A stretch of 64,000 nucleotides of DNA from a virus (Duplodnaviria; Caudoviricetes): the IMG/VR virus record IMGVR_UViG_3300032313_001158, positions 331 through 64,330 of that record, one strand, 5' to 3'. The position numbers and the translations under genes were made by a program. Shown here piece after piece: positions 2,596-55,480 of this stretch; within the stretch, counting starts at the first letter, position 1; the number at the start of each line of letters is the position of its first letter. The notes under the pieces were generated by a model. It worked only from the letters and a program-made list of their open reading frames with translations, had not been told where the DNA came from and did not search any database.

Positions 2596-4542
2596 TTAGG
2601 TTAATCCGGCTCCGGTAATAACAAATTGATTGCTGGCAATACATAATATGGTGCAAAGTCCATATCCAGCAAGTGTACGACTGCCCGTTAAACCAGTGAC
2701 CACTTGCCGCATGGTAACACTGGTTCCTTGTGTAATTGTTTGACTTGAACTGGAGTTGTTATAAATTGTTACAGATTGCCCTGCACTAAACACTCCAGAA
2801 TTTAGCGTAACTCCACCCGAAGTAATAGAAATTACCTGTCCAGAATCTGATACTAAAAGGCTATAACTTGATCCTTTACTTTGCACCGGCAAATTACGAA
2901 GATTACCAACACTGTCGGCCACACTGGTCATGCCAGACATTGTACCGCCAGTGATAGTTACATTATTGTCGTTCTGAATTGACAGGTTGCCTAAACTACC
3001 AGTAACTGCGGTTACAAAAGCAGTTGTTGCTACCGCAGTATTTGATGTACCAGTTGGCATGGTCAAGGTAGTTACAATTCCGCCTACACTTAGATTGCCG
3101 GCTATGCCTGCACCGCCCGACAATACCATTGCTCCTGTAGTAGTTGACCGACTGGCAGTGGTTGCTGTTGATAATAGGTTACCAGCGACATGTATGTTTG
3201 CACCTATAGTTGCTTGTCCGCTCGTTGAGCTATTACCGCTGATAACAACATTACTACCAATTGTGGCTGTTGTACCAACGGTTAACGCACCAGACAATGC
3301 AGCAGACCGAGTGTGTATGGTGTTAAATCGCATACCAGAACTGCCGATGTTTGAACTAATATTAGCAGTTGGAATTATATCTGCACCAAGATACATGGTT
3401 GCTACATTGCTTAAAGTAGAAAATGTATTAGCCGCGTTTATATTTCCTACCAATATACTTTCAGAAAAAATATTGGTCCAACGATTGGTGGTGTTCCCTA
3501 GAGTGTAAGTTAAATTTGCACTGGGTGTCACATCCCCGAAGAAATTGGCTGTGCCGTTTACTGACCCAGATAATGTATCAACATAATTTTTTGTGGCCAC
3601 AGATAAAGCAGGCGATGATGCTATAGGGTGACTGTAGACTTCAGCTAATCCGGTGGTAGAATTTCCTCGCAAGAAAGCAGTTTGTAGACCTCCAGATTTA
3701 ACACTGAGAACAAGGTCTCTATTATTAGTCTGATTTCTTAAAGTGACTACACCGCTGCTAACTGATCCAACGAAGTCACTTGCAGCGCCAAATGTGATGC
3801 CGCCATCATTGGTCAATGATAACGAGCCATTTACAGTGCCAGACTGATCATTTCGTAAAAAACTAGCTCCAGCAACGGCTACACCACTCACATACAAACT
3901 GCTGGCAACTTCGCTGTTGCCCCAAAATGTGTGTCCTAGTGTGCTGTTGAGATTTAGTCCTTTTTTGATAGTAGCAAATCCAGATATGTCTGAAGCAAAT
4001 GGACCATCCTTGCTCCAAATTCCTACCAAAATATCGTTAATAAGAAATTTGATCACCACAAAAGTTGTGCTGGGTGGTGCGTCAGTAATAACGTCAGGTA
4101 TGGCTCCTGAATTACCAGTAGCTGTTCTACTCAATGGGCCAATAAGTTGCCAAACTGTACCGTTATATAGTTTTAATTGGCCGTTGGTGGTATCATACCA
4201 CTGCTCACCTGTGTAAGCATTCAATGGGGTGCTGGCACTCAATGTCATTCCAGCAACAGTTTTCCAAATAGCACTAGCTGTGCCTTTGGTGGTAGCTATA
4301 TTTACATTTAATAATTTTGTTGTGCTATTGAACCAAAGTTGTCCAGGAACAGGTGCAGTGGGTGCTGTGCCAAGTGCAAAGTTTTCCATTAATCTTACTA
4401 CATTTTGATTTAGAAAAAGCCCGTATCCTTTGTAGTTTTTTCCTACCAAAGTGAGGCTTGAGTTTGTACTGTCTGTGGTATTATCTAATAATCCACCTGC
4501 AATTAATTCTGTTCCGTTGGTTAATGTTATATTATATGCCAT
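2596..4542 (-). CDS. tail fibre / baseplate-associated structural protein
   Basis: 648 aa, Thr/Ser/Gly-rich; GQLWFNS and GEQWYDT repeats, ATKNYVD and ATTAFV fibre motifs; TAAATA late promoter at 4562-4567. Confidence 0.75.
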   Translation of the reverse strand: MAYNITLTNGTELIAGGLLDNTTDSTNSSLTLVGKNYKGYGLFLNQNVVRLMENFALGTAPTAPVPGQLWFNSTTKLLNVNIATTKGTASAIWKTVAGMTLSASTPLNAYTGEQWYDTTNGQLKLYNGTVWQLIGPLSRTATGNSGAIPDVITDAPPSTTFVVIKFLINDILVGIWSKDGPFASDISGFATIKKGLNLNSTLGHTFWGNSEVASSLYVSGVAVAGASFLRNDQSGTVNGSLSLTNDGGITFGAASDFVGSVSSGVVTLRNQTNNRDLVLSVKSGGLQTAFLRGNSTTGLAEVYSHPIASSPALSVATKNYVDTLSGSVNGTANFFGDVTPSANLTYTLGNTTNRWTNIFSESILVGNINAANTFSTLSNVATMYLGADIIPTANISSNIGSSGMRFNTIHTRSAALSGALTVGTTATIGSNVVISGNSSTSGQATIGANIHVAGNLLSTATTASRSTTTGAMVLSGGAGIAGNLSVGGIVTTLTMPTGTSNTAVATTAFVTAVTGSLGNLSIQNDNNVTITGGTMSGMTSVADSVGNLRNLPVQSKGSSYSLLVSDSGQVISITSGGVTLNSGVFSAGQSVTIYNNSSSSQTITQGTSVTMRQVVTGLTGSRTLAGYGLCTILCIASNQFVITGAGLT

Positions 4543-24979: not shown

Positions 24980-26233
24980 ATGATCTCCGTTGAAAAATTT
25001 GTTAATGTAATTCATGAGCAATTACTTGATCCGTTATTAATTACGTCTTTTGGTTTCAGTCCCCGATATTCTACTGATCCAAAAAATTTTAGTAGCGCAT
25101 TTCTTCATACCAAATCATCTAGCGGAATGGGGAAAATGAATGGAAGATGTATTTGGTGGCATGAAGAACCTTTAAATTATATTGACTTAGATGGTATTCG
25201 ATATCAAGATGTTTATATGCCAGAAATGGAAATGTTATGCTATCGTTCAGCTGAATATACCGTTGCTCCCGGTCCACCTAGTCAACCCGGAATGCTTGCT
25301 CAGGCATATACTGTCAATTTTCATGTATTTGCTAACTCCGAAAAAAGTCCGTTGAAGAAACAATTTTTAAAAGATTGGCAGGTATACGATTGGTATTTCT
25401 TTTTTCACGGATTTGCTGCATTAAATTGGTTTAATGACTACAAGTACTTGAACTTTTCAAATTATAATCTAAGTAAAGTATTTATTTGTTTAAATTACCT
25501 AATAACGAATAATAGAAGTTATCGATTAAATTTGTTATCACACTTAAGACAAGCCAAATTAGAACCATATGGTTTTGTATCTGCTCCTCTGCTGAATAAA
25601 GATATAATTAAACAAGAGTTATTTGATCCAAATACTAAACTATCAGTGCCAGCTAAAAAACATATACTAAATCATTTAACAACAACTGCTGCTCCTATTG
25701 TTCTTGATGTTTGTAATTACAAAAGTGCCAGTGCTGATGTCATTGATCCTAAGTTCCAAGTTGAATCCTTGTGGAGTGTAGTCACAGAAACAGTATTTTA
25801 TGAAGATAAACTGCATTTAACTGAAAAGATTTTTAAGCCTATTGTGACTCGACGACCTTTTATCCTAGTAGGCGGTTTTGGAAATCTAGCGTATTTAAAA
25901 AGCTATGGGTTTAAAACATTCGATCGCTGGATTGACGAAAGTTACGACAACGAACAGGATCCCGACATTCGTATCAAATTGATAACAGATCAATTGAAAA
26001 TACTCTGTTCCATGCCATGGACAGATTTACTAAAAATGTACGAGGAAATGCAAGAGACTCTAGAGTTTAATCATCATCATTTTTATAACAAATTTAAAGA
26101 AATTATCGTCAATGAGCTGGTTGATAATTTCGAGATTTGTACTAAACAATACAACATGGGCTTGTCTAATAGGTTTAAACTACCCACAAAATACATTAAT
26201 TTTGAATCTGTTAAAAAACTTTTATTAAAATAA
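24980..26233 (+). CDS. putative glycosyltransferase-like protein (GT10-like TEK motif)
   Basis: VVTET...LTEKIFKPI...LKSYGFKTF...IDESYD; paralogue of 14749..15837. Confidence 0.6.
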   Translation: MISVEKFVNVIHEQLLDPLLITSFGFSPRYSTDPKNFSSAFLHTKSSSGMGKMNGRCIWWHEEPLNYIDLDGIRYQDVYMPEMEMLCYRSAEYTVAPGPPSQPGMLAQAYTVNFHVFANSEKSPLKKQFLKDWQVYDWYFFFHGFAALNWFNDYKYLNFSNYNLSKVFICLNYLITNNRSYRLNLLSHLRQAKLEPYGFVSAPLLNKDIIKQELFDPNTKLSVPAKKHILNHLTTTAAPIVLDVCNYKSASADVIDPKFQVESLWSVVTETVFYEDKLHLTEKIFKPIVTRRPFILVGGFGNLAYLKSYGFKTFDRWIDESYDNEQDPDIRIKLITDQLKILCSMPWTDLLKMYEEMQETLEFNHHHFYNKFKEIIVNELVDNFEICTKQYNMGLSNRFKLPTKYINFESVKKLLLK

Positions 26234-26238
26234 TATGG

Positions 26239-26991
26239 TTATGAATTAATCGAAGACAAGATCAGCTGTTCCATGTCTCGGATTCTGGTTCTTGTGCTGT
26301 TGCTGTTCAACACAATAAACAGTCTTTTTTTTCCGTTTACAAAAACACTCATTATTAAACAGCCGCCACTGGCGCGAACATATCCAGTTTTACTAACAAT
26401 CACATTATATTTAGCGACCAGCGGATTTGTATTAGCATATTTCCATTTTAAGATTTTTCTTTTAGTAGGTTGTAGTAATTCTCCTACATACTGATTACTG
26501 GCATGCACTATATGAGGATACTTTTCTGCCGCCATGAGTAATTTTATTAAATCTTTTGGAGTACTGACATTGCGATTATCAAGCCCGCTACTATCTTCAA
26601 ATTTGGTTTCTAACATACCCAATGTCAATGCTTTGTGATTCATATCATCAATGCAAGACTTATAACCCCTATGATAACTTTCGCACAACATCTGGGCAGC
26701 TTGATTGTCAGATTTTATTATCGCTAAATTGAGCAGTTGTTCTCTGGTGACAGACAGTCCTCTAAATTTTTTGCCAAGTGGTTGTTTAAGATTTTCGTTT
26801 GCATCAAGAATAACCATCACAGTCATAAGTTTGGTTATACTAGCAATTGGTTGTTTTATTTCAATATTTTCTGAATCAAGTATATTGCCTTCACCATCGG
26901 CTATCAGCCAAGACTTGGCTAAAATGTTTGCTGAATGAACAGGCAATGAAACAGCTACGAAGACTATAAAAGTAAATAATTTTTTTAACAT
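26239..26991 (-). CDS. D-alanyl-D-alanine carboxy/endopeptidase (peptidase S11, PBP7-like)
   Basis: Signal peptide; ASITK (SxxK), SDN and KTG motifs. Confidence 0.92.
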   Translation of the reverse strand: MLKKLFTFIVFVAVSLPVHSANILAKSWLIADGEGNILDSENIEIKQPIASITKLMTVMVILDANENLKQPLGKKFRGLSVTREQLLNLAIIKSDNQAAQMLCESYHRGYKSCIDDMNHKALTLGMLETKFEDSSGLDNRNVSTPKDLIKLLMAAEKYPHIVHASNQYVGELLQPTKRKILKWKYANTNPLVAKYNVIVSKTGYVRASGGCLIMSVFVNGKKRLFIVLNSNSTRTRIRDMEQLILSSINS

Positions 26992-27008
26992 TGATTCTAA
27001 AATACTAT

Positions 27009-27170
27009 TTAGTGGTAGTCTTTTGCCAGATCTTCACAAAAGTATTCCATTATCAAAAATCCTGCAACAGATATAATTGTCCCAAACAGGCTAGGAATAT
27101 TAAAACTCAAGAGTAACAGGCAATAGAAATAAATTCTCAAGCCCCAGGTAAGTAAATTAGGTATATCCAT
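27009..27170 (-). CDS. small two-TM membrane protein (53 aa, not in ORF track)
   Basis: MDIPNLLTWGLRIYFYCLLLLSF... Confidence 0.5.
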   Translation of the reverse strand: MDIPNLLTWGLRIYFYCLLLLSFNIPSLFGTIISVAGFLIMEYFCEDLAKDYH

Positions 27171-27288
27171 TGATAATGTTAATCACTTCCTCTATATGAA
27201 GATTGAGTGTCTTTGCAATTTTTACCATACTGTATCCCTGATTGTGGAGATCAAGTACCAATTTAATCATTGAACTATGCGAACCCAT
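27157..27288 (-). CDS. small HTH-like protein (43 aa, not in ORF track)
   Basis: LHNQGYSMVKIAKTLNLHIEEV helix-turn-helix pattern. Confidence 0.5.
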   Translation of the reverse strand: MGSHSSMIKLVLDLHNQGYSMVKIAKTLNLHIEEVINIINGYT

Positions 27289-27434
27289 TTTCTACTTTAT
27301 GCCTTTCAATGATGCGTTTTACCTCGTCAATGTCGTATCTTAGATTTAGGCATATATGTTCTGCCAGATAACTGTGTTCAAAATACATACGTACAACCAA
27401 GTCCGCATTTGCTGCAAATGTATATTTAATTTCT

Positions 27435-28202
27435 TTATCTTTCACAATCAACCCATTTTAAATTATTGTATTGCTTGTAACCCCAAGAACCTTTTGGTAT
27501 TAAGCATGTTCCTAATTCGGGACGTTCAACTTTACGAAGTTCTATTACACTCCAAATCAATACACAAAGATAAAGTATAGATATTACTACAATACCCCAG
27601 GTTGTGATTTTTTCTTTTATGATCTTAATTCGCCCGGCTTTTCTTTCTGCGGCTTTTTTATCGTTTATTTTTTTTGCAGCCCACGCAGCAGCCTGTTGCT
27701 TTTTCATCTGCTGCATCATCTTCTCAACTCTGCCGTAAAGATCGCCTAACTCTTTGGGACAGTTATAGACCATGAGCTCACGCAATTCGGCCTGCATGGC
27801 AACTAATTTACTTTCCATGAGAACCCGTTGTAAAGCTCTTTTGCCTAGACTGACTTCTCCAGTATAAACTTCATTGTCGTGTTTTGCTTCTTCCTCAAAG
27901 ATAGCAGAACATTTGGCATAGTTTTCAAAGTACGCACCAAGTTCTTCGCCGATCATTGTATAAATATCATCAGGTTGCTTTTTGCTAAGTTCAATGATTC
28001 GATTTTTTTCTTCTACATACTGATTTTTTTCAGTTACAGTAGGTCTTTTATCTTTGAACTTTTCATTAAATTGCTGATCTAAATCTGCAAGAACGCCTTT
28101 GACATCGCCGGCGACACTTTGTATTTCTTTATATAAGGCACAGCCTTTTTTGACAGCAGCAACGGCACCATTGGCCAGGGCGAAGAGGGTTAATGGATCC
28201 AT
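27435..28202 (-). CDS. coiled-coil membrane protein of unknown function
   Basis: MDPLTLFALA N-terminus, long helices, C-terminal TM and a short Cys-pair domain. Confidence 0.75.
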   Translation of the reverse strand: MDPLTLFALANGAVAAVKKGCALYKEIQSVAGDVKGVLADLDQQFNEKFKDKRPTVTEKNQYVEEKNRIIELSKKQPDDIYTMIGEELGAYFENYAKCSAIFEEEAKHDNEVYTGEVSLGKRALQRVLMESKLVAMQAELRELMVYNCPKELGDLYGRVEKMMQQMKKQQAAAWAAKKINDKKAAERKAGRIKIIKEKITTWGIVVISILYLCVLIWSVIELRKVERPELGTCLIPKGSWGYKQYNNLKWVDCER

Positions 28203-28349
28203 AACCCCCGCCCCTTATGTGATACTATTATAACCCTGTTTATCGGGCTAAACATTTGTGATCCTTTGTAATTATTTTTGATGGACCAATAGTAATCGAA
28301 CTTATTATTACTTATTTTGATTAAAGTAAAAAAGCTCTTAGGGGGCGGA

Positions 28350-28424
28350 TTACATTCTATGCGGTGGAGTTACTGGACTGGGTCGTGGTGGATTTCTTGG
28401 GGGACGGTGTGCAAACCAACTCAT
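28350..28424 (-). CDS. 24-aa proline/arginine-rich peptide (not in ORF track), candidate leader/arrest peptide
   Basis: AAAGGAGA RBS then MSWFAHRPPRNPPRPSPVTPPHRM*. Confidence 0.65.
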   Translation of the reverse strand: MSWFAHRPPRNPPRPSPVTPPHRM

Positions 28425-28445
28425 AATATTCTCCTTTACATGTCA

Positions 28446-28470
28446 TAAAAAAACCTGGAAATTCCAGGTT
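28446..28470 (-). terminator. intrinsic terminator
   Basis: AACCTGGA/TCCAGGTT stem plus U-tract after gene 28469..28825. Confidence 0.7.
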
Positions 28471-28810
28471 ATTTGTAAATTGTTCTAACTCCTAATCCTA
28501 CACCTTTTTTGAGTGGACTTTCGTCTGGTATATAAATTTTATTACCCACTCCTAACATACAGTATTCATCTGTTTGCAAATCGTGTATAAACCAGCTGGT
28601 AGTGTGGGTTTCAAAATTAGCATATACCAAATTAACAGTTCGCTCGTTAGGACTCTGGGTGGCCATGATCAATTTTTCACCATACTTCTCCATAGTCACT
28701 TCAACATCTTCAAAACTGCCACACATAAAGCGAATCTGTTTTGAATTAGGTTCGGCTGTAGCTGCCATGGCTATTGTAGCCAGTAAGATGGCAGCTAATA
28801 AGTTTTTCAT
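28469..28810 (-). CDS. secreted protein with a Cys pair
   Basis: Signal MKNLLAAILLATIAMAATA. Confidence 0.7.
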   Translation of the reverse strand: MKNLLAAILLATIAMAATAEPNSKQIRFMCGSFEDVEVTMEKYGEKLIMATQSPNERTVNLVYANFETHTTSWFIHDLQTDEYCMLGVGNKIYIPDESPLKKGVGLGVRTIYK

Positions 28811-28821
28811 ACTAATATATA

Positions 28822-29454
28822 TCACTTATTTGCTAGCGGATTATCTAATGCTTTTTTAATTTTATCATCTAATTCGCGGCGCAATTGTTTAATTTCTTGC
28901 TCATTTTCTTTTTGCAACTGTCTTACTGCACCATCAACTTGACGTTGTAATTCTTTATTCTGCTGAGTGGTATCTTTTTCTAATTGGCGAGTTATTTTGT
29001 CTACTTCTTGTTTGGTTTCACGTACATCTTTACGTGCATCTTGTACACTTTTATCTGTATCGCGCTGTGCTACTTTACTATCACGTTCCACTGATTCAAC
29101 CACGGTCTCAAGTCGACGTATATCGCTTTTTAGATCATTTTTAATATCTTGGCTGTATTCCACTGTTTTATTAGTGTTTGCTTCTAGCACTTCTAGTTTC
29201 TTGTAGACTTCTCCTAGATCAGGAGTAACATAGTCGGCAATCTTTTGCTTCATGTCCATGTAGTCTTTATAAACTTCAAAAGATCCGTAGAGGCCGCCCA
29301 ATACAGAGGTAACAATGGTGCCAGCTATCATGAGCTTGGCTGGAGTAAATGCATAACCGCCAATGCTGATAACTGTGTTTTCGCTAAGATATTTTTCCTT
29401 AGCAGCTTCTAAATCTTCTACTTTTTCGTCGATGTTTTTGTTTTTGTCTGACAT
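28822..29454 (-). CDS. single-TM protein with a long coiled coil
   Basis: TM segment near aa 40-60, heptad repeats, ends ALDNPLANK. Confidence 0.75.
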   Translation of the reverse strand: MSDKNKNIDEKVEDLEAAKEKYLSENTVISIGGYAFTPAKLMIAGTIVTSVLGGLYGSFEVYKDYMDMKQKIADYVTPDLGEVYKKLEVLEANTNKTVEYSQDIKNDLKSDIRRLETVVESVERDSKVAQRDTDKSVQDARKDVRETKQEVDKITRQLEKDTTQQNKELQRQVDGAVRQLQKENEQEIKQLRRELDDKIKKALDNPLANK

Positions 29455-30888
29455 TTATTTTTCTCCTAATTGGTATTGTTGTTCTATCATCTGTTGATGA
29501 CGGGCTTCACTTGCACCACTCAACAATCTTTGTGCATTTCTATTGTCCACAGATTTTTGATTGGCGTATATTTCTCGTGATTTGTAAAATTGTGTATCTG
29601 GTACTGCGTTATACTGGTAAGCTTCGAAGCCAGGCAATATGCCCATGCCCGATACTATGATATTTTGAACTGCAATAATGTCTTCTTGTTTTTTAGATTT
29701 TGCAATTTCTTTAATTGCATTCTCAGCATTCTTTTTATTTTCGGTATTCTTTTTAGCAATCGCTTCACGTTTTTCTTCCTTTGGAGGTGTACGTGTTTCT
29801 GGATTACTAACTGTTTCACGTTTTTCTTCTTTTGGAGGTGTGCGTGTTTCTGGATTTGGTTCTCGTACTGCAGAATTCACGGCAGTCACTGATGTTGGCG
29901 ATGTGGTTGCGGTTGGTGTGATTGCTTGCGATTCTGCTTGTTTCTGTAACGTTGTTGGGCTGCTAGATGCAGTTGTTGCCAGTGATTGATTAATTAAACT
30001 GCTGTTAACATCTAGTACTACTAAATTTTTTATTGCATAGGCAGTAGCATATCCTTCGCATTGACGATCAAACAAACTATCTTTTTTACATTGTTCTAGG
30101 AAATAGGCTTGTTGATAACCCGGGCATCCTATATCAAATAACGGACTAACTGTACACTGATATACATAATATCCAGGGCAACTTGGACTGTATCCGGGGC
30201 TTATCGAACACTGACGTGTCAAGTATGCGGCTTCATAGCCCGGACAACTGGTTGAACTTAATGGATCGGCTGTGCAGGTATCTCCTTGTGCATAAACTGG
30301 ACGTGAGTATGCATTACGTATATTGGGTCCATAATTGCCTCCCCAAAAACCAGCATCCATGCCTGTAATACCCATGGTGAAATTACCCATGTTGGCCAGA
30401 TCATATGGACTAGCAAATCTTTGTTCTGTGGCCACATTCTGCCACGTTGGATTGTAGGCGCTGTTACCATCAGCAGCATTTTTTGCTCCCAACCCGTAGT
30501 ACTGTGAATATATTGTACCACCACTACCATTGGTAATCGTAATGGTAGCATTCAATGTGTCCTGCTTGGAATTGCTAGTACAATCAGATCCAATTTGTTG
30601 ACCACAGTTGAATCGATATTCAAAACCGTAGTTAAATCCATAAATTTGAATACCTGACCCTTGTAGTGCCTGATTGATAGCATAGGTTTGAGCTATAGTA
30701 CCACTTTGAAAGCTGAATGTATATCCCGGACCACCGGCACCGTCAACACCACCAGCCATACCGCTTCGAGTCCATCCTGTTGCATTGCCGTTTAACTCAC
30801 CATTGACCAGTGCGTTATCTCCAACAGTGGGTTCCACAGCAAATGCCGGAAGTGTTATAAATGCCAGTGCCGCCAAAAACTTTTTCAT
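29455..30888 (-). CDS. secreted Cys-repeat protein
   Basis: Signal peptide, beta-sandwich-like N-domain, four CxxxP/SxxxxxCxGY repeats. Confidence 0.75.
   Translation of the reverse strand: MKKFLAALAFITLPAFAVEPTVGDNALVNGELNGNATGWTRSGMAGGVDGAGGPGYTFSFQSGTIAQTYAINQALQGSGIQIYGFNYGFEYRFNCGQQIGSDCTSNSKQDTLNATITITNGSGGTIYSQYYGLGAKNAADGNSAYNPTWQNVATEQRFASPYDLANMGNFTMGITGMDAGFWGGNYGPNIRNAYSRPVYAQGDTCTADPLSSTSCPGYEAAYLTRQCSISPGYSPSCPGYYVYQCTVSPLFDIGCPGYQQAYFLEQCKKDSLFDRQCEGYATAYAIKNLVVLDVNSSLINQSLATTASSSPTTLQKQAESQAITPTATTSPTSVTAVNSAVREPNPETRTPPKEEKRETVSNPETRTPPKEEKREAIAKKNTENKKNAENAIKEIAKSKKQEDIIAVQNIIVSGMGILPGFEAYQYNAVPDTQFYKSREIYANQKSVDNRNAQRLLSGASEARHQQMIEQQYQLGEK
29764..29856. repeat. intragenic tandem duplication with a 51-bp period
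   Basis: Encodes NPETRTPPKEEKRE twice, with synonymous differences. Confidence 0.85.
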
Positions 30889-31340
30889 TAGTCTTTGCTC
30901 TTAACTTTTTGTGGTTGACGCTTGGGGTCTGATTCCCAGATATCACGAGCTTCTTGTCCAATTTTACCATCAACCGGACAAGGTGTTCCGGCATTCATCA
31001 TAGCAGTGAATACACGTTCGTCTTGACACAGCGTAGCTACCGCTGCCACTTTCATTCCCATATCAAATAGTGTCTTAGATAATTTTAAGCGTTCGCAATT
31101 TTTGTCTACAAAAGTACTACCAATTGCAATACCTAGAATTTGTGTTTGTGCTGCTCCACTAACCCCCACAGCACATAAATCGCTGTTCATGCTGTTGATT
31201 CCTGGCGCTATTGCAGTAGGGGGCGGGGATTTGATTGTTGTTTCCGTTGTACTACGACTGGTACTATCAGTTACAATAGGATCTGCAGCATAAGCCGAGA
31301 TTGACGATAGAATCAAAACTGATAATAATACTTGTTTCAT
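30888..31340 (-). CDS. secreted four-Cys protein
   Basis: Signal peptide; PPPTAIAP...DLC...CERLKLSKTL...LCQD...TPCP. Confidence 0.75.
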   Translation of the reverse strand: MKQVLLSVLILSSISAYAADPIVTDSTSRSTTETTIKSPPPTAIAPGINSMNSDLCAVGVSGAAQTQILGIAIGSTFVDKNCERLKLSKTLFDMGMKVAAVATLCQDERVFTAMMNAGTPCPVDGKIGQEARDIWESDPKRQPQKVKSKD

Positions 31341-32798: not shown

Positions 32799-33110
32799 TT
32801 AGGTTGCTGGTTCTAGTTTGACGTTGAGTGGAAAGCCATTGTTTCGAGCAAGCAATGTGGCTTCTACACCTTTTTGTTCTGCAATTTCATATGGCAATGT
32901 GCTTACTACACTGCTTCCTTCTTCGTGAATTTTCACAGTAATTTCGTGTGCAGTTTCTTCGGTGTGATGAAAAATATTCTTTAGACTTTCAATAACAAAT
33001 TCCATAGTAGTTATATTATCATTAAGATAGATGACATTAAACAAACTGGGAGGCTGCACATTTGTTTTAACCTGAATTCGAGGTTTTACTACGATGTCTG
33101 TTTTGCTCAT
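32799..33110 (-). CDS. clpS: ATP-dependent Clp protease adaptor ClpS
   Basis: PPSLFNVIYLNDNITTMEFV...IHEEG...EIAEQK...FPL. Confidence 0.92.
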   Translation of the reverse strand: MSKTDIVVKPRIQVKTNVQPPSLFNVIYLNDNITTMEFVIESLKNIFHHTEETAHEITVKIHEEGSSVVSTLPYEIAEQKGVEATLLARNNGFPLNVKLEPAT

Positions 33111-33673: not shown

Positions 33674-35560
33674 TTACTTCTTTTCTGTAAACTCAGCGTC
33701 AACTACTGTGTCGTTTGTGTTGGGCTGTACAGATTCCTCAGCAGCGGGTGCTTGGGTTACTTCATTAATTACCTTAGCAGCTACAAACAATTCTGAGATC
33801 TTGGTCGTGATCACTTCCTGGTCTGTTTCTGCTATTGCCTTTTTGAGGTTGGCAATAGCCTCATCAATTTGTTTCGTCTGATCTTCCGAAAGCTTGCCTT
33901 CTACTTCCTTCATGTCAGTTTGAACCTGGTGGATTACAGAATCCGCTTGGTTACGTACTTCAATTAATTCACGTTGCTTTTTATCAGCATCAGCATTGGC
34001 TTCGGCATCGCGAATCATTTCTGCAATCTGCTCCTGGCTTAGGCCACTATCGCTCTTGATAGTAATCTTGTTTTCTTTGCCAGTTTGTTTATCTCGGGCA
34101 CTTACTTTGAGAATACCATTTGCGTCAACATCTAGGGTGACTTCAATCTGTGGTTGACCACGTGCAGCAGGATTGATTCCTTCTAGGTTAAATTCACCTA
34201 GTAGCTTGTTATAAGAGGCCAACTCACGTTCGCCCTGGAACACCTTGATAGTAACAGCAGGTTGATTGTCTTCTGCGGTCGAGAACACTTGGCTATGTTT
34301 GGTTGGAATAGTAGTGTTCTTTTGTATTAGTTTGGTCATCACACCGCCCATGGTTTCAATACCAAGGCTTAGTGGGGTCACATCAAGTAGTAGAACGTCT
34401 TTGCGTTCACCGCCTAGTACAGCACCTTGCACTGCTGCACCAACTGCTACTGCTTCATCCGGATTGACATCACGACGTGGTGCCCGTCCAAATAACTTTT
34501 CAACTTCTTCTTGTACACGAGGCATACGTGTCATACCACCAACAAGGATAACTTCATCAATGTCCGTGGCAGTAACACCTGCATCACGCATGGCAACACG
34601 ACATGGTTCAATGCTGCGTTGGATCAGCTCATCAACCAATGACTCTAGTTTAGCACGAGTAATCTTGATGTTGAGGTGTTTGGGACCTGTGGCATCTGCT
34701 GTGATGTATGGCAAGTTAACATCTGTTTGTGTGCTATTACTTAATTCAATCTTGGTGCGCTCGGCTGCTTCTTTTAGGCGTTGTAATGCCATGACATCTT
34801 TGCCAAGATCAACACCCGATTCTTTACGGAATTCGTCAATCAAGAAATCCATAATACGTTGGTCAAAGTCTTCGCCACCTAGGAATGTATCACCATTGGT
34901 GCTAAGTACTTCAAATTGCTTATCACCGTCCACGTTAGCAATATCAATAATGCTGATGTCAAAGGTACCACCACCCAGATCGTACACAGCGATCTTGCGA
35001 TCAGCCTTTTCATTTTTGTCCACTCCATATGCCAAAGCTGCTGCTGTTGGCTCATTGATAATACGTAGAACTTCTAGACCTGCAATTGCTCCTGCATCTT
35101 TGGTTGCTTGACGCTGGCTGTCATTGAAGTAAGCAGGTACTGTGATAACTGCCCGAGTAACTTCATACCCAAGATAGTCTTCGGCAGTCTTTTTCATTTT
35201 GCGAAGAACTTCGGCACTGATCTGTGGAGGTGCTAGTTCTTTACCATCTGCCTGTACCCATGCATCGCCATTCTTGGCTTCCATGATTGTGTAAGGCATG
35301 AGGTCAATATCTTTCTGAACAGCTTCTTCCCGGAACTTGCGTCCAATTAGTCGCTTGCTAGCATAGATTGTGTTTCGTGGATTGGTTACTGCTTGACGCT
35401 TGGCGCCGGCTCCCACAATAATCTCCTCTGCGGTGTAAGCCACGACGCTGGGAGTAGTACGTGCACCTTCTGAATTTTCAATTACTCGGGGGATTCCGTT
35501 TTCGACAACTGCTACGCAGCTATTGGTGGTACCGAGGTCGATACCAATGATTGTACTCAT
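33674..35560 (-). CDS. dnaK: chaperone DnaK (Hsp70)
   Basis: [40 protein letters not shown] and VDAEF. Confidence 0.98.
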
Positions 35561-54965: not shown

Positions 54966-55480
54966 AGTGGTAATTTCCCAAAGTTTAAGTATTTAGCCGA
55001 AATTAAAGTTTTTTTCAAAATGTTTAATACAGCCTTACGTTGTAATTTAGCATCTATGCATCTATTTAATACCGCAGCTGATTTAACTAAATCTTGGGTT
55101 TTTGATAGTGTATATTCATACTGTACAATATTCAAATCTAAACGTCCGAGCTTTGTATCTAAATCTAATAGTGTTTGTGCTGATTCGTATTTTTGCCGTA
55201 CTTCGCTAACACAGTAAATGATAGCTGAAGCTTTTGATGTAAAATCGTGTATGTGGCGTCCATCAATTTTTTCTACAGTCCAGCAAGCAGAATGTACTCC
55301 GGTGATACGAAACTCCCCAACAAAAAACCCATGATCATTGATTGGAATGACCACGGGTTTGTTACGGTATTTTTTAAGTTCTTGTTTGGTCCAGTTTTTA
55401 AGATATGATGTACTAAAATCTACAAATGCATTTTGTACCTTTATGAAATCAGCTTTTTTTCCTGTAGTAGATTTTCCCAT
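54962..55480 (-). CDS. hypothetical protein
   Basis: Likely start MGKSTT. Confidence 0.65.
   Translation of the reverse strand: MGKSTTGKKADFIKVQNAFVDFSTSYLKNWTKQELKKYRNKPVVIPINDHGFFVGEFRITGVHSACWTVEKIDGRHIHDFTSKASAIIYCVSEVRQKYESAQTLLDLDTKLGRLDLNIVQYEYTLSKTQDLVKSAAVLNRCIDAKLQRKAVLNILKKTLISAKYLNFGKLPL

Follow-up and report, generated by a model that had tools for sequence, protein, structure and literature searches.

The short open reading frame (ORF) at 28350..28424 on the minus strand of the IMG/VR virus record IMGVR_UViG_3300032313_001158 (Duplodnaviria; Caudoviricetes) is probably a free-standing gene for a 24-residue member of a widespread family of tiny trans-acting docking proteins of aquatic T4-like phages. 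The window, i.e., the whole stretch of 64,000 nucleotides (nt) analyzed here (positions 331 to 64,330 of the record), comprises nearly all of this 64,330-bp record, for which CheckV gives a completeness of 18%.

The product of the small gene would act in trans. Its invariant 13-residue N-terminus would be a docking module for a conserved partner, and the variable tail of proline, lysine and arginine would be an extended positive arm that binds a polyanion, namely DNA, RNA or the ribosome. This docking reading is based on the combination of an invariant 13-residue head with a fast-changing, basic and proline-rich tail. In the favoured version, the N-terminus would work like the capsid-targeting sequence of the T4 internal proteins and the peptide would be packed with the DNA; drawn from analogy, this version is possible but rather doubtful. 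The ribosome, a chaperone or a nucleic acid are considered as alternative targets.

Conservation of the small gene

The gene encodes the proline-rich, basic micro-protein MSWFAHRPPRNPPRPSPVTPPHRM and ends with a TAA stop codon (28352..28350), as obtained from the strand reading and the ORF listing. Its Shine-Dalgarno (SD) sequence AAAGGAGA is located at 28430..28437 on the minus strand, six bases 5′ of the ATG. Both the ORF and this ribosome-binding site (RBS) are present as given in the preliminary description of this DNA. In the clade of the window, the small gene lies between a strong terminator-like element (T1) and a second one (T2), which is decayed in the window. T1 (28447..28470, minus strand) was detected by a terminator scan as the hairpin AACCTGGAATTTCCAGGTT with 8 pairs and seven T, resembling an intrinsic terminator. 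It stands directly 3′ of the TAA of a gene for a 113/118-residue protein and ends 22 nt before the ATG of the small gene, and AAAGGAGA begins ten bases past its T-run. The relic of T2 (28328..28349, minus strand), recognized from the sequence and a leader alignment, consists of the C-tract TCCGCCCCC (28349..28341), TAAGAGC and six T (28333..28328). Accordingly, the RNA past the stop codon reads UCCGCCCCCUAAGAGC, followed by six U. Beyond this T-run there is a 37-nt AT-rich block, then a further short frame (uORF2) and finally the ATG of a gene for a 255-residue protein.

Relatives were gathered via the flanking proteins, resulting in 71 IMG/VR loci with the 255-residue protein and 32 loci with the 113-residue protein (single loci are referred to by L numbers). 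An ORF starting with MSWF.H was found in 43 of these neighbour-anchored loci, representing 31 distinct sequences. In 21 distinct nucleotide versions of the 24-residue form, the variable columns are distributed over codon positions 1, 2 and 3 as 8, 6 and 20, and the pooled ratio of non-synonymous to synonymous polymorphism (pN/pS) is 0.13. This test is unbiased, as the loci came from the neighbouring genes and not from a sequence pattern of the ORF itself.

The start codon, the stop codon (TAA or TAG) and the length (24-26 codons) are all maintained in the clade. An SD-like GGAG, AGGA or GAGG precedes the ATG in each of the 31 distinct relatives, and the upstream hairpin with its T-run is kept in 30 of them; its stem occurs in the versions CCTGG, GCCTGG and GCCTC, with a matching 3′ arm in each. 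Conservation of the ORF in relatives had been proposed beforehand as a check and could be confirmed, with purifying selection acting on the peptide. Judged by this pattern of substitutions, the small ORF is a real gene.

Directly behind the 113-residue gene, the small ORF is located in 29 of the 32 loci, of which 26 were recognized by the pattern, two are cut by the contig end and one is an MTWF variant. The remaining three (L072, L074 and L082) contain neither the small gene nor the hairpin and carry a desaturase-like gene instead. This gene (around 3340-3700 in these loci) contains histidine boxes (HRxxxH, HRYHH) typical of fatty-acid desaturases; a stearoyl-CoA desaturase is reported for freshwater pelagimyophages in PMC7029224.

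The peptide family and its occurrence inside other genes

The small gene belongs to a family of basic, proline-rich phage proteins of 20-83 residues with the N-terminal motif M-S-W-F-x-H-[KR]-P-P-[KR]-x-P-P. IMG/VR was searched with a degenerate DNA pattern that represents codons 1-13, and at least 118 stretches with at least 117 ORFs of 20-72 residues were found among the matches listed; this limit also holds for the counts of family loci and peptides given in the following (97 distinct loci, 94 of them testable, and sets of 78 and 88 peptides). The pattern covers the start region of the 24/25-residue type only and fixes positions 1 and 2 of nine codons, for which reason the residues concerned were not counted as evidence of conservation. 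The positions left free by the pattern are conserved as well, with P8 in 76 and P9 in 56 of 78 peptides. In the neighbour-anchored set of 22 sequences, M1, W3, F4, H6, P12 and P13 are invariant. The same pattern matched eight stretches in 185,579 prokaryote genomes, none of which holds a family-like ORF.

A profile of 45 members was searched against 1.84 billion representative proteins and revealed 45 clusters at an E-value of at most 1e-3. These proteins of 29-83 residues match at or near their N-terminus, show no fusion to a larger domain and include variants outside the reach of the DNA pattern. The window ORF itself scores with an E-value of 7.2e-10 against the family profile, its peptide aligns with M1, W3, F4, H6 and P12 invariant, and it has its own SD sequence; all features that define the family are thus present in it. 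Further searches gave little. A word-index search with a 46-residue member returned four proteins, all of them unnamed, and the ESM Atlas a single unnamed cluster with a score of 0.83, which is below the level of evidence. A Pfam scan of 14 family members and of the window uORF2 peptide listed no match. Neither blastn of the region nor tblastn of the 113-residue protein and of a 52-residue family member gave a match in 50,697 phage records.

The conservation of the family is located at the N-terminus, and the tails vary in length and sequence. Longer members (43-59 residues) have P-H-[RH]-x-S-P-x-x-[ED]-K as their second motif, behind which the tail is rich in lysine. The 24-residue form looks like a truncated version of these longer members, since the PPHRM of the window aligns with the start of the second motif.

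Regarding the genomic context, the 255-residue gene is found within 3 kb in 33 and the 113-residue gene in 30 of the 97 distinct family loci, and other subfamilies have quite different neighbours. Behind the small ORF, there are four convergent genes in L080 and, ahead of the following gene, a complete GC-rich terminator in L052 and L093; in other groups the distance to the following gene is at most 15 nt. Conversely, the small ORF stands directly upstream of the 255-residue gene in 13 of the 71 loci that contain this gene and 2.3 kb away in three more, and in the other 55 no such ORF was detected within the flanks fetched. Because the downstream genes vary, because those of L080 are convergent and because 18 of the 94 testable loci have the ORF nested in other genes, the small ORF, as far as can be read from these loci, is not a dedicated leader peptide.

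In these 18 loci, the small ORF is embedded, out of frame, in a longer frame open on both sides, with GAGGAG or AAGGAG 5′ of the ATG in every case. Eight of the hosts are CsgG-like lipoproteins (L145, L136, L162, L167, L172, L185, L192 and L214), of which the one in L145 (207-1523, minus strand) matches Pfam CsgG with an E-value of 1.6e-47. Here the ORF is located in a linker of the extended protein past the CsgG domain, at about host residues 277-375. The other ten hosts, among them L221, L231, L246, L132, L147 and L149, begin with MKSIKEKQ and have fibre-like, variable C-terminal parts, and the ORF is found in a linker at host residues 84-150. Past codon 13, the small frame shows the higher pairwise identity in both sets of pairs, with 0.42 versus 0.36 in the host frame (21 of 28 pairs, with four pairs showing the opposite) and 0.43 versus 0.30 (14 of 15 pairs). 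The tails of the nested members are also similar to those of the free-standing long forms (0.37).

Curlin-repeat and FecR-domain genes come after the CsgG-like gene. CsgG/CsgF clusters are known in pelagimyophages, and their function is called unclear in PMC7029224. In the cultured phages Melnitz and HTVC008M, CsgG is short and has no such extension; in the window's own record, CsgG was not found.

Spacer pairing and the proposed likeness to apidaecin

According to the preliminary description, the sequence behind the small ORF is an anti-RBS: a ribosome stalled at the stop codon would mask it and thereby switch on the downstream genes. The underlying complementarity of CCGCCCC and GGGGCGG does exist and was recovered both by a repeat search and in the minimum free energy (MFE) fold. 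The partner of the C-tract is the G-rich tract AAGGGGCGGGGG in the RBS region of the 255-residue gene (28205..28216, minus strand; sequence, repeat search and fold). The arms of the inverted repeat (28208-28217 and 28339-28348) are 10 nt long, 90% complementary and 121 nt apart. The MFE fold of 28180..28480 (minus strand) has −69.4 kcal/mol (z −2.65, equalled by one of 100 shuffles) and contains the 7-bp helix. For the duplex of the 25 nt after the stop with the 25 nt before the start, −18.6 kcal/mol were calculated, and shuffling of the first arm gave such a value in 6 of 300 cases. In this one sequence, the pairing therefore exceeds the usual chance level.

The switch could not be confirmed in the relatives. 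Of 19 relatives that share the downstream gene, two (L048 and L050) have a duplex of the post-stop region with the SD region that exceeds 95% of the shuffles, and in most of the 19 the SD sequence finds a better partner elsewhere in the spacer. Partition-function folding of these 19 gave at least 4.9 expected pairs for L007, L002 and L054 and at most 2.8 elsewhere. In an alignment of 16 leaders, the C-tract of the window coincides with the 5′ arm of a terminator hairpin, which is intact in L020 (GCCCC-GCAA-GGGGC plus T-run, behind a different upstream gene), L052 and L093. The T-run after this T2 hairpin is invariant in all 16 leaders. The 3′ arm of the window is decayed and reads AGAGC instead of GGGGC, so that the C-rich arm is free. 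Furthermore, the leader of the 255-residue gene also occurs without the small ORF (L020 type, L074), and the low share of loci with the ORF directly upstream (13 of 71) likewise argues against the switch. The CCGCCCCC tract would thus represent the 5′ arm of a decayed terminator, and its complementarity to the G-rich RBS of the next gene would be a trait of this lineage only and not the purpose of the ORF.

Among 27 distinct leaders, a free C-rich arm pairing strongly with the SD region is found in the window (−17.7 kcal/mol), L153/L007 (−11.7 kcal/mol) and L074 (−10.5 kcal/mol). G-rich versions of the tract (GGAGCGGGGG, GGGCGGCGG, GGAGCGGAGG) are present only in the clade of the window, and other clades have TGGATCGGAGC. 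RNAalifold predicts a 5-bp long-range helix at the place of the C- and G-tracts in the 16 leaders, which occurs as ATCTA/TGGAT and GCCCC/GGGGC, with 85% of the cells paired and double changes in three of the five pairs. As the folding term is +0.17 kcal/mol, the loop comprises about 135 nt and the changes split only two clades, this support for a conserved pairing is weak.

A cis switch limited to the lineage of the window is unlikely. In this case, a ribosome at the end of the small ORF would cover the C-tract, which starts 2 nt past the stop codon, and free the G-rich RBS region serving uORF2 and the 255-residue gene. Such a switch would agree with the pairing in the MFE fold (stronger than 294 of 300 shuffles), with the two sequence versions of the 5-bp helix at the homologous place in the 16 leaders, and with the closest relative L007, in which another C-rich tract, 8-13 nt past the stop codon, pairs with the G-rich SD region (7.8 expected pairs; −11.7 kcal/mol). 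However, 17 of the 19 relatives have a duplex no better than shuffle level, and in L074 the C-rich/G-rich pair is present in the absence of a small ORF. The invariant T-run, in some loci a full terminator, stands between the genes of the two arms, the conserved leader core lies between the arms as well, and the leader is a self-contained block that is also found behind other genes. In addition, the G-tract lies inside uORF2, whose translation would itself open the helix without an upstream ORF, and the peptide family is conserved where no downstream gene exists.

Leader peptides of the TnaC type and the erm-leader type exert their effect at the stop codon of their own frame or expose an RBS located downstream. 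The window likewise has a short ORF with a strong SD sequence upstream of a gene and a complementary pair that links the end of the ORF to the next RBS. In contrast to these leaders, the downstream gene is inconstant, the pairing is at best weakly conserved, terminator-like elements stand on both sides of the ORF, and homologues exist without a downstream gene and inside other genes.

The peptide had also been described as apidaecin-like. For the apidaecin family, a C-terminal pharmacophore of eight residues (PRPPHPRL) and lengths of 15-34 residues for apidaecin-like peptides are given in PMC11549390. P11, R12, R17 and L18 of apidaecin tolerate almost no substitution, active variants have a net charge of +2 to +4, and apidaecin is active when its gene is expressed within bacterial cells (PMC11347161). 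Release factors are trapped by type II peptides, whose penultimate arginine contacts the glutamine of the GGQ motif, and arginine- and proline-rich peptides generally tend to bind the ribosomal tunnel in either orientation (PMC13233979).

Aligned from the C-terminus, PVTPPHRM of the window is identical to PRPPHPRL at four of eight positions. Of the critical residues, P17 and R23 are kept, V18 replaces R12 and M24 replaces L18. The clade of the window resembles apidaecin in being short (24 residues fall within the range of 15-34), proline-rich and basic, with a penultimate arginine and a hydrophobic last residue: R23 is penultimate in the window, and 25 of 27 distinct 24/25-residue peptides end with R-[M/I]. 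The net charge (K+R−D−E) of these 27 is +3 in 19, +4 in seven and +1 in one, which lies within the active range for 26 of them, and arginine outnumbers lysine in the clade (66 versus 25). The 26-residue forms end with R itself and have no hydrophobic last residue. PRP occurs in one of the 27 clade peptides and in 3 of 88 peptides of the wider family, which is rich in lysine (389 K versus 177 R). Unlike apidaecin, which is cut from a secreted insect polyprotein, the peptide is made intracellularly by a phage, PRPPHPRL is not kept and the conserved end is the N-terminus. The proposed likeness does not hold, given four matching pharmacophore positions, the absence of equivalents of R12 and L18, and conservation at the opposite end. 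The idea of a phage-made translation inhibitor acting in trans, which had been offered as the alternative to the switch, survives in weakened form; its general part, a peptide acting in trans, is the likeliest reading.

A joint reading, to which little probability is assigned, combines several of these elements. The 24/25-residue clade would have been trimmed from longer members to a C-terminus mimicking type II peptides and would be an inhibitor or sensor of termination employed by the phage. In the lineage of the window, the release factor would be held on the peptide's own ribosome and the pause over the C-tract would open the next RBS, and the family as a whole would be a mobile micro-gene overprinting itself into linkers of unrelated phage genes.

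Even less probable is an action of the 24/25-residue clade on the terminating ribosome as such, either by staying in the tunnel after its own release or by acting in trans, with a release factor trapped via the penultimate arginine. The R-[M/I] ends of 25 of 27 peptides, their net charge of mostly +3 or +4 and the excess of arginine over lysine are consistent with this, as are the use of the penultimate arginine by type II peptides (PMC13233979) and the charge range and intracellular activity reported for apidaecin (PMC11347161). It is at odds with the half-matching pharmacophore with V and M in place of R12 and L18, the single PRP among the 27 peptides, the 26-residue forms lacking a hydrophobic last residue, and the longer homologues, in which P-H-R is internal and followed by 20-30 more residues; a global block of termination would presumably also hit the translation of the phage itself.

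It is highly improbable that the block is conserved as nucleic acid, in the role of a recombination or regulatory element, and that the open frame is a by-product: one 40-nt start region does recur within unrelated genes and between genes, and shifted frames may readily stay open in such a T-poor ORF, but the variation is three-periodic and concentrated at third positions in loci that were not selected by the pattern, start codon, SD sequence and stop are kept with a steady clade length of 24-26 codons, and past codon 13 the tails show stronger conservation when read in the small frame than in the frame of the host.

Analogues, neighbouring genes and phage background

For the docking reading, the internal proteins of T4 provide the closest model. 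Their N-terminal targeting peptides of 10-19 residues are conserved, their basic mature parts diverge and the prohead protease removes the peptide (PMC9026906). The family shares with them the T4-like background, a short invariant N-terminus, a basic and fast-diverging remainder and the location of the gene in a variable genome region. In contrast to the T4 internal proteins, its cargo comprises 7-70 residues and is always proline-rich. T4 internal proteins share the targeting peptide within one phage; such sharing was not seen in the window record, with its one copy in 64 kb.

Rz1 is a small proline-rich gene overprinted in another frame on Rz of phage lambda. Similarly, the small proline-rich protein of the family is encoded out of frame in a longer gene with its own RBS in 18 of the 94 testable loci. 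Unlike Rz1, the family has no signal peptide, lipobox or cysteine, its hosts are CsgG-like or fibre-like and most members stand alone. An identity as o-spanin was dropped for the missing signal peptide and cysteine.

Several observations weigh against the docking reading. No match for the family was found in Pfam, PHROGs or NCBIfam, and the cultured, CsgG-bearing phages Melnitz and HTVC008M contain no family member by pattern or profile, so that they do not lend themselves to a study of the family; the same profile does recover the copy of the window. With T1 just upstream and no recognized promoter, expression of the small gene would have to depend on read-through: a sigma-70 scan gave 16 sites versus 16.6 expected, and the TATAAT at 28227-28232 is used by none of them. 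The capsid-targeting version in particular has to account for a motif that is present only on tiny proline-rich tails and for a single copy in a 64-kb record representing 18% of the genome. Finally, the strength of the window duplex (6 of 300 shuffles) and the 5-bp helix predicted by RNAalifold speak against a merely incidental pairing.

The secreted 113/118-residue protein (28469..28825, minus strand; ORF listing and 32 IMG/VR loci) is constantly found upstream of the small gene in the clade. It contains SWFIH (28583..28597, minus strand), the only SWF.H in the 36,792 residues of the long frames of the window, and thus adjoins a gene whose product begins with MSWFAH; S-W-F-[IV]-H is kept in 20 of 22 homologues. 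An AlphaFold2 model of the 113-residue protein (predicted local distance difference test, pLDDT, of 78) shows one helix and four strands, with SWFIH in the third beta-strand. A Foldseek search of this model against the PDB gave no match at E ≤ 0.001.

The 255-residue protein (27435..28202, minus strand; ORF listing and 71 IMG/VR relatives) has a hydrophobic stretch near its C-terminus (TTWGIVVISILYLCVLIWSVIEL). It has no match in Pfam, PHROGs or PADLOC, and in NCBIfam two rows with E-values of 0.099 and 0.14 are far below the cut-offs. Its leader contains a 37-nt core, TAAGTAATAATAAGTTCGATTACTATTGGTCCATCAA (28278..28314, minus strand), that is near-invariant in the 16 aligned leaders, including L020 without an adjacent small ORF. 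The core occurs once in the window; further matches require three mismatches, i.e., chance level. It is possibly an operator, an element of the 5′ untranslated region or a promoter. No Rfam match was obtained for the core, and the only Rfam hit with E ≤ 1 over 26000-31000 is tmRNA_permuted with 19.8 bits versus a gathering threshold of 47, which was taken as chance.

Downstream of the core, uORF2 (28190..28255, minus strand; ORF listing) encodes the 21-residue peptide MFSPINRVIIVSHKGRGLWIH with the SD sequence AAAGGA at 28267..28262. It includes the G-tract and ends 11 nt inside the 255-residue gene. An ORF of 16-21 codons with an ATG, TTG or GTG start is found at this place in all 16 aligned leaders, the peptide sequence being conserved only inside the clade of the window, and this position suggests translational coupling with the 255-residue gene. 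In three clades, pairing is possible between the initiation region of uORF2 and a TTGGTyC segment of the conserved leader.

The phage background of the window is T4-like, as a 568-residue structural protein is closest to those of T4-like cyanophages (45% identity over 66% of the length). Furthermore, a ribonucleotide reductase is encoded. A full-length DnaK (Hsp70) homologue (33674..35560, minus strand) is 65% identical to Salmonella DnaK, and a homologue of the ClpS adaptor lies beside it (about 32820..33053, minus strand; Pfam ClpS, E-value 1e-26). Roles of the small peptide as a ClpS ligand after removal of Met-Ser, as a binder of the DnaK cleft or as a substrate of a phage prolyl hydroxylase were considered and set aside. 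Other genes of the region code for a D-alanyl-D-alanine carboxypeptidase with a signal peptide (26239-26991, minus strand; Peptidase_S11, E-value 2e-36) and for a secreted protein of 477 residues (29455-30888, minus strand) with repeated C-P-G-Y motifs and the tandem repeat ETRTPPKEEKRE, for which no family match was found. For the 210-residue neighbour, PADLOC gave matches at the level of coiled coils only.

The motif TAAATAC is strongly strand-biased in the window, with 12 copies on the gene strand (minus), among them those at 54995, 50706, 43300, 38121, 10331 and 4567, and two on the opposite strand. Six of the 12 are located 3-25 nt before ORF starts. In other subfamilies, the motif is found between the terminator and the small gene or directly past the stop of the small gene. 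It looks like a phage promoter or initiation signal and recalls the late promoter of T4.

The protein sequence of the family is conserved in well over 100 contigs of uncultured, aquatic T4-like phages, and the family has no Pfam, PHROGs or NCBIfam entry; tiny phage genes under the usual gene-calling length are mostly invisible. An attractive reading of one sequence as an RNA switch did not survive the comparison with relatives. Overprinting by a portable micro-gene is seen in the nested members as a clean natural example, with the small frame being the better conserved one. The conserved head and the free tail point to a partner, with the capsid core, a nucleic acid, the ribosome or a chaperone as candidates, and phage biology would gain a new small effector from its identification.

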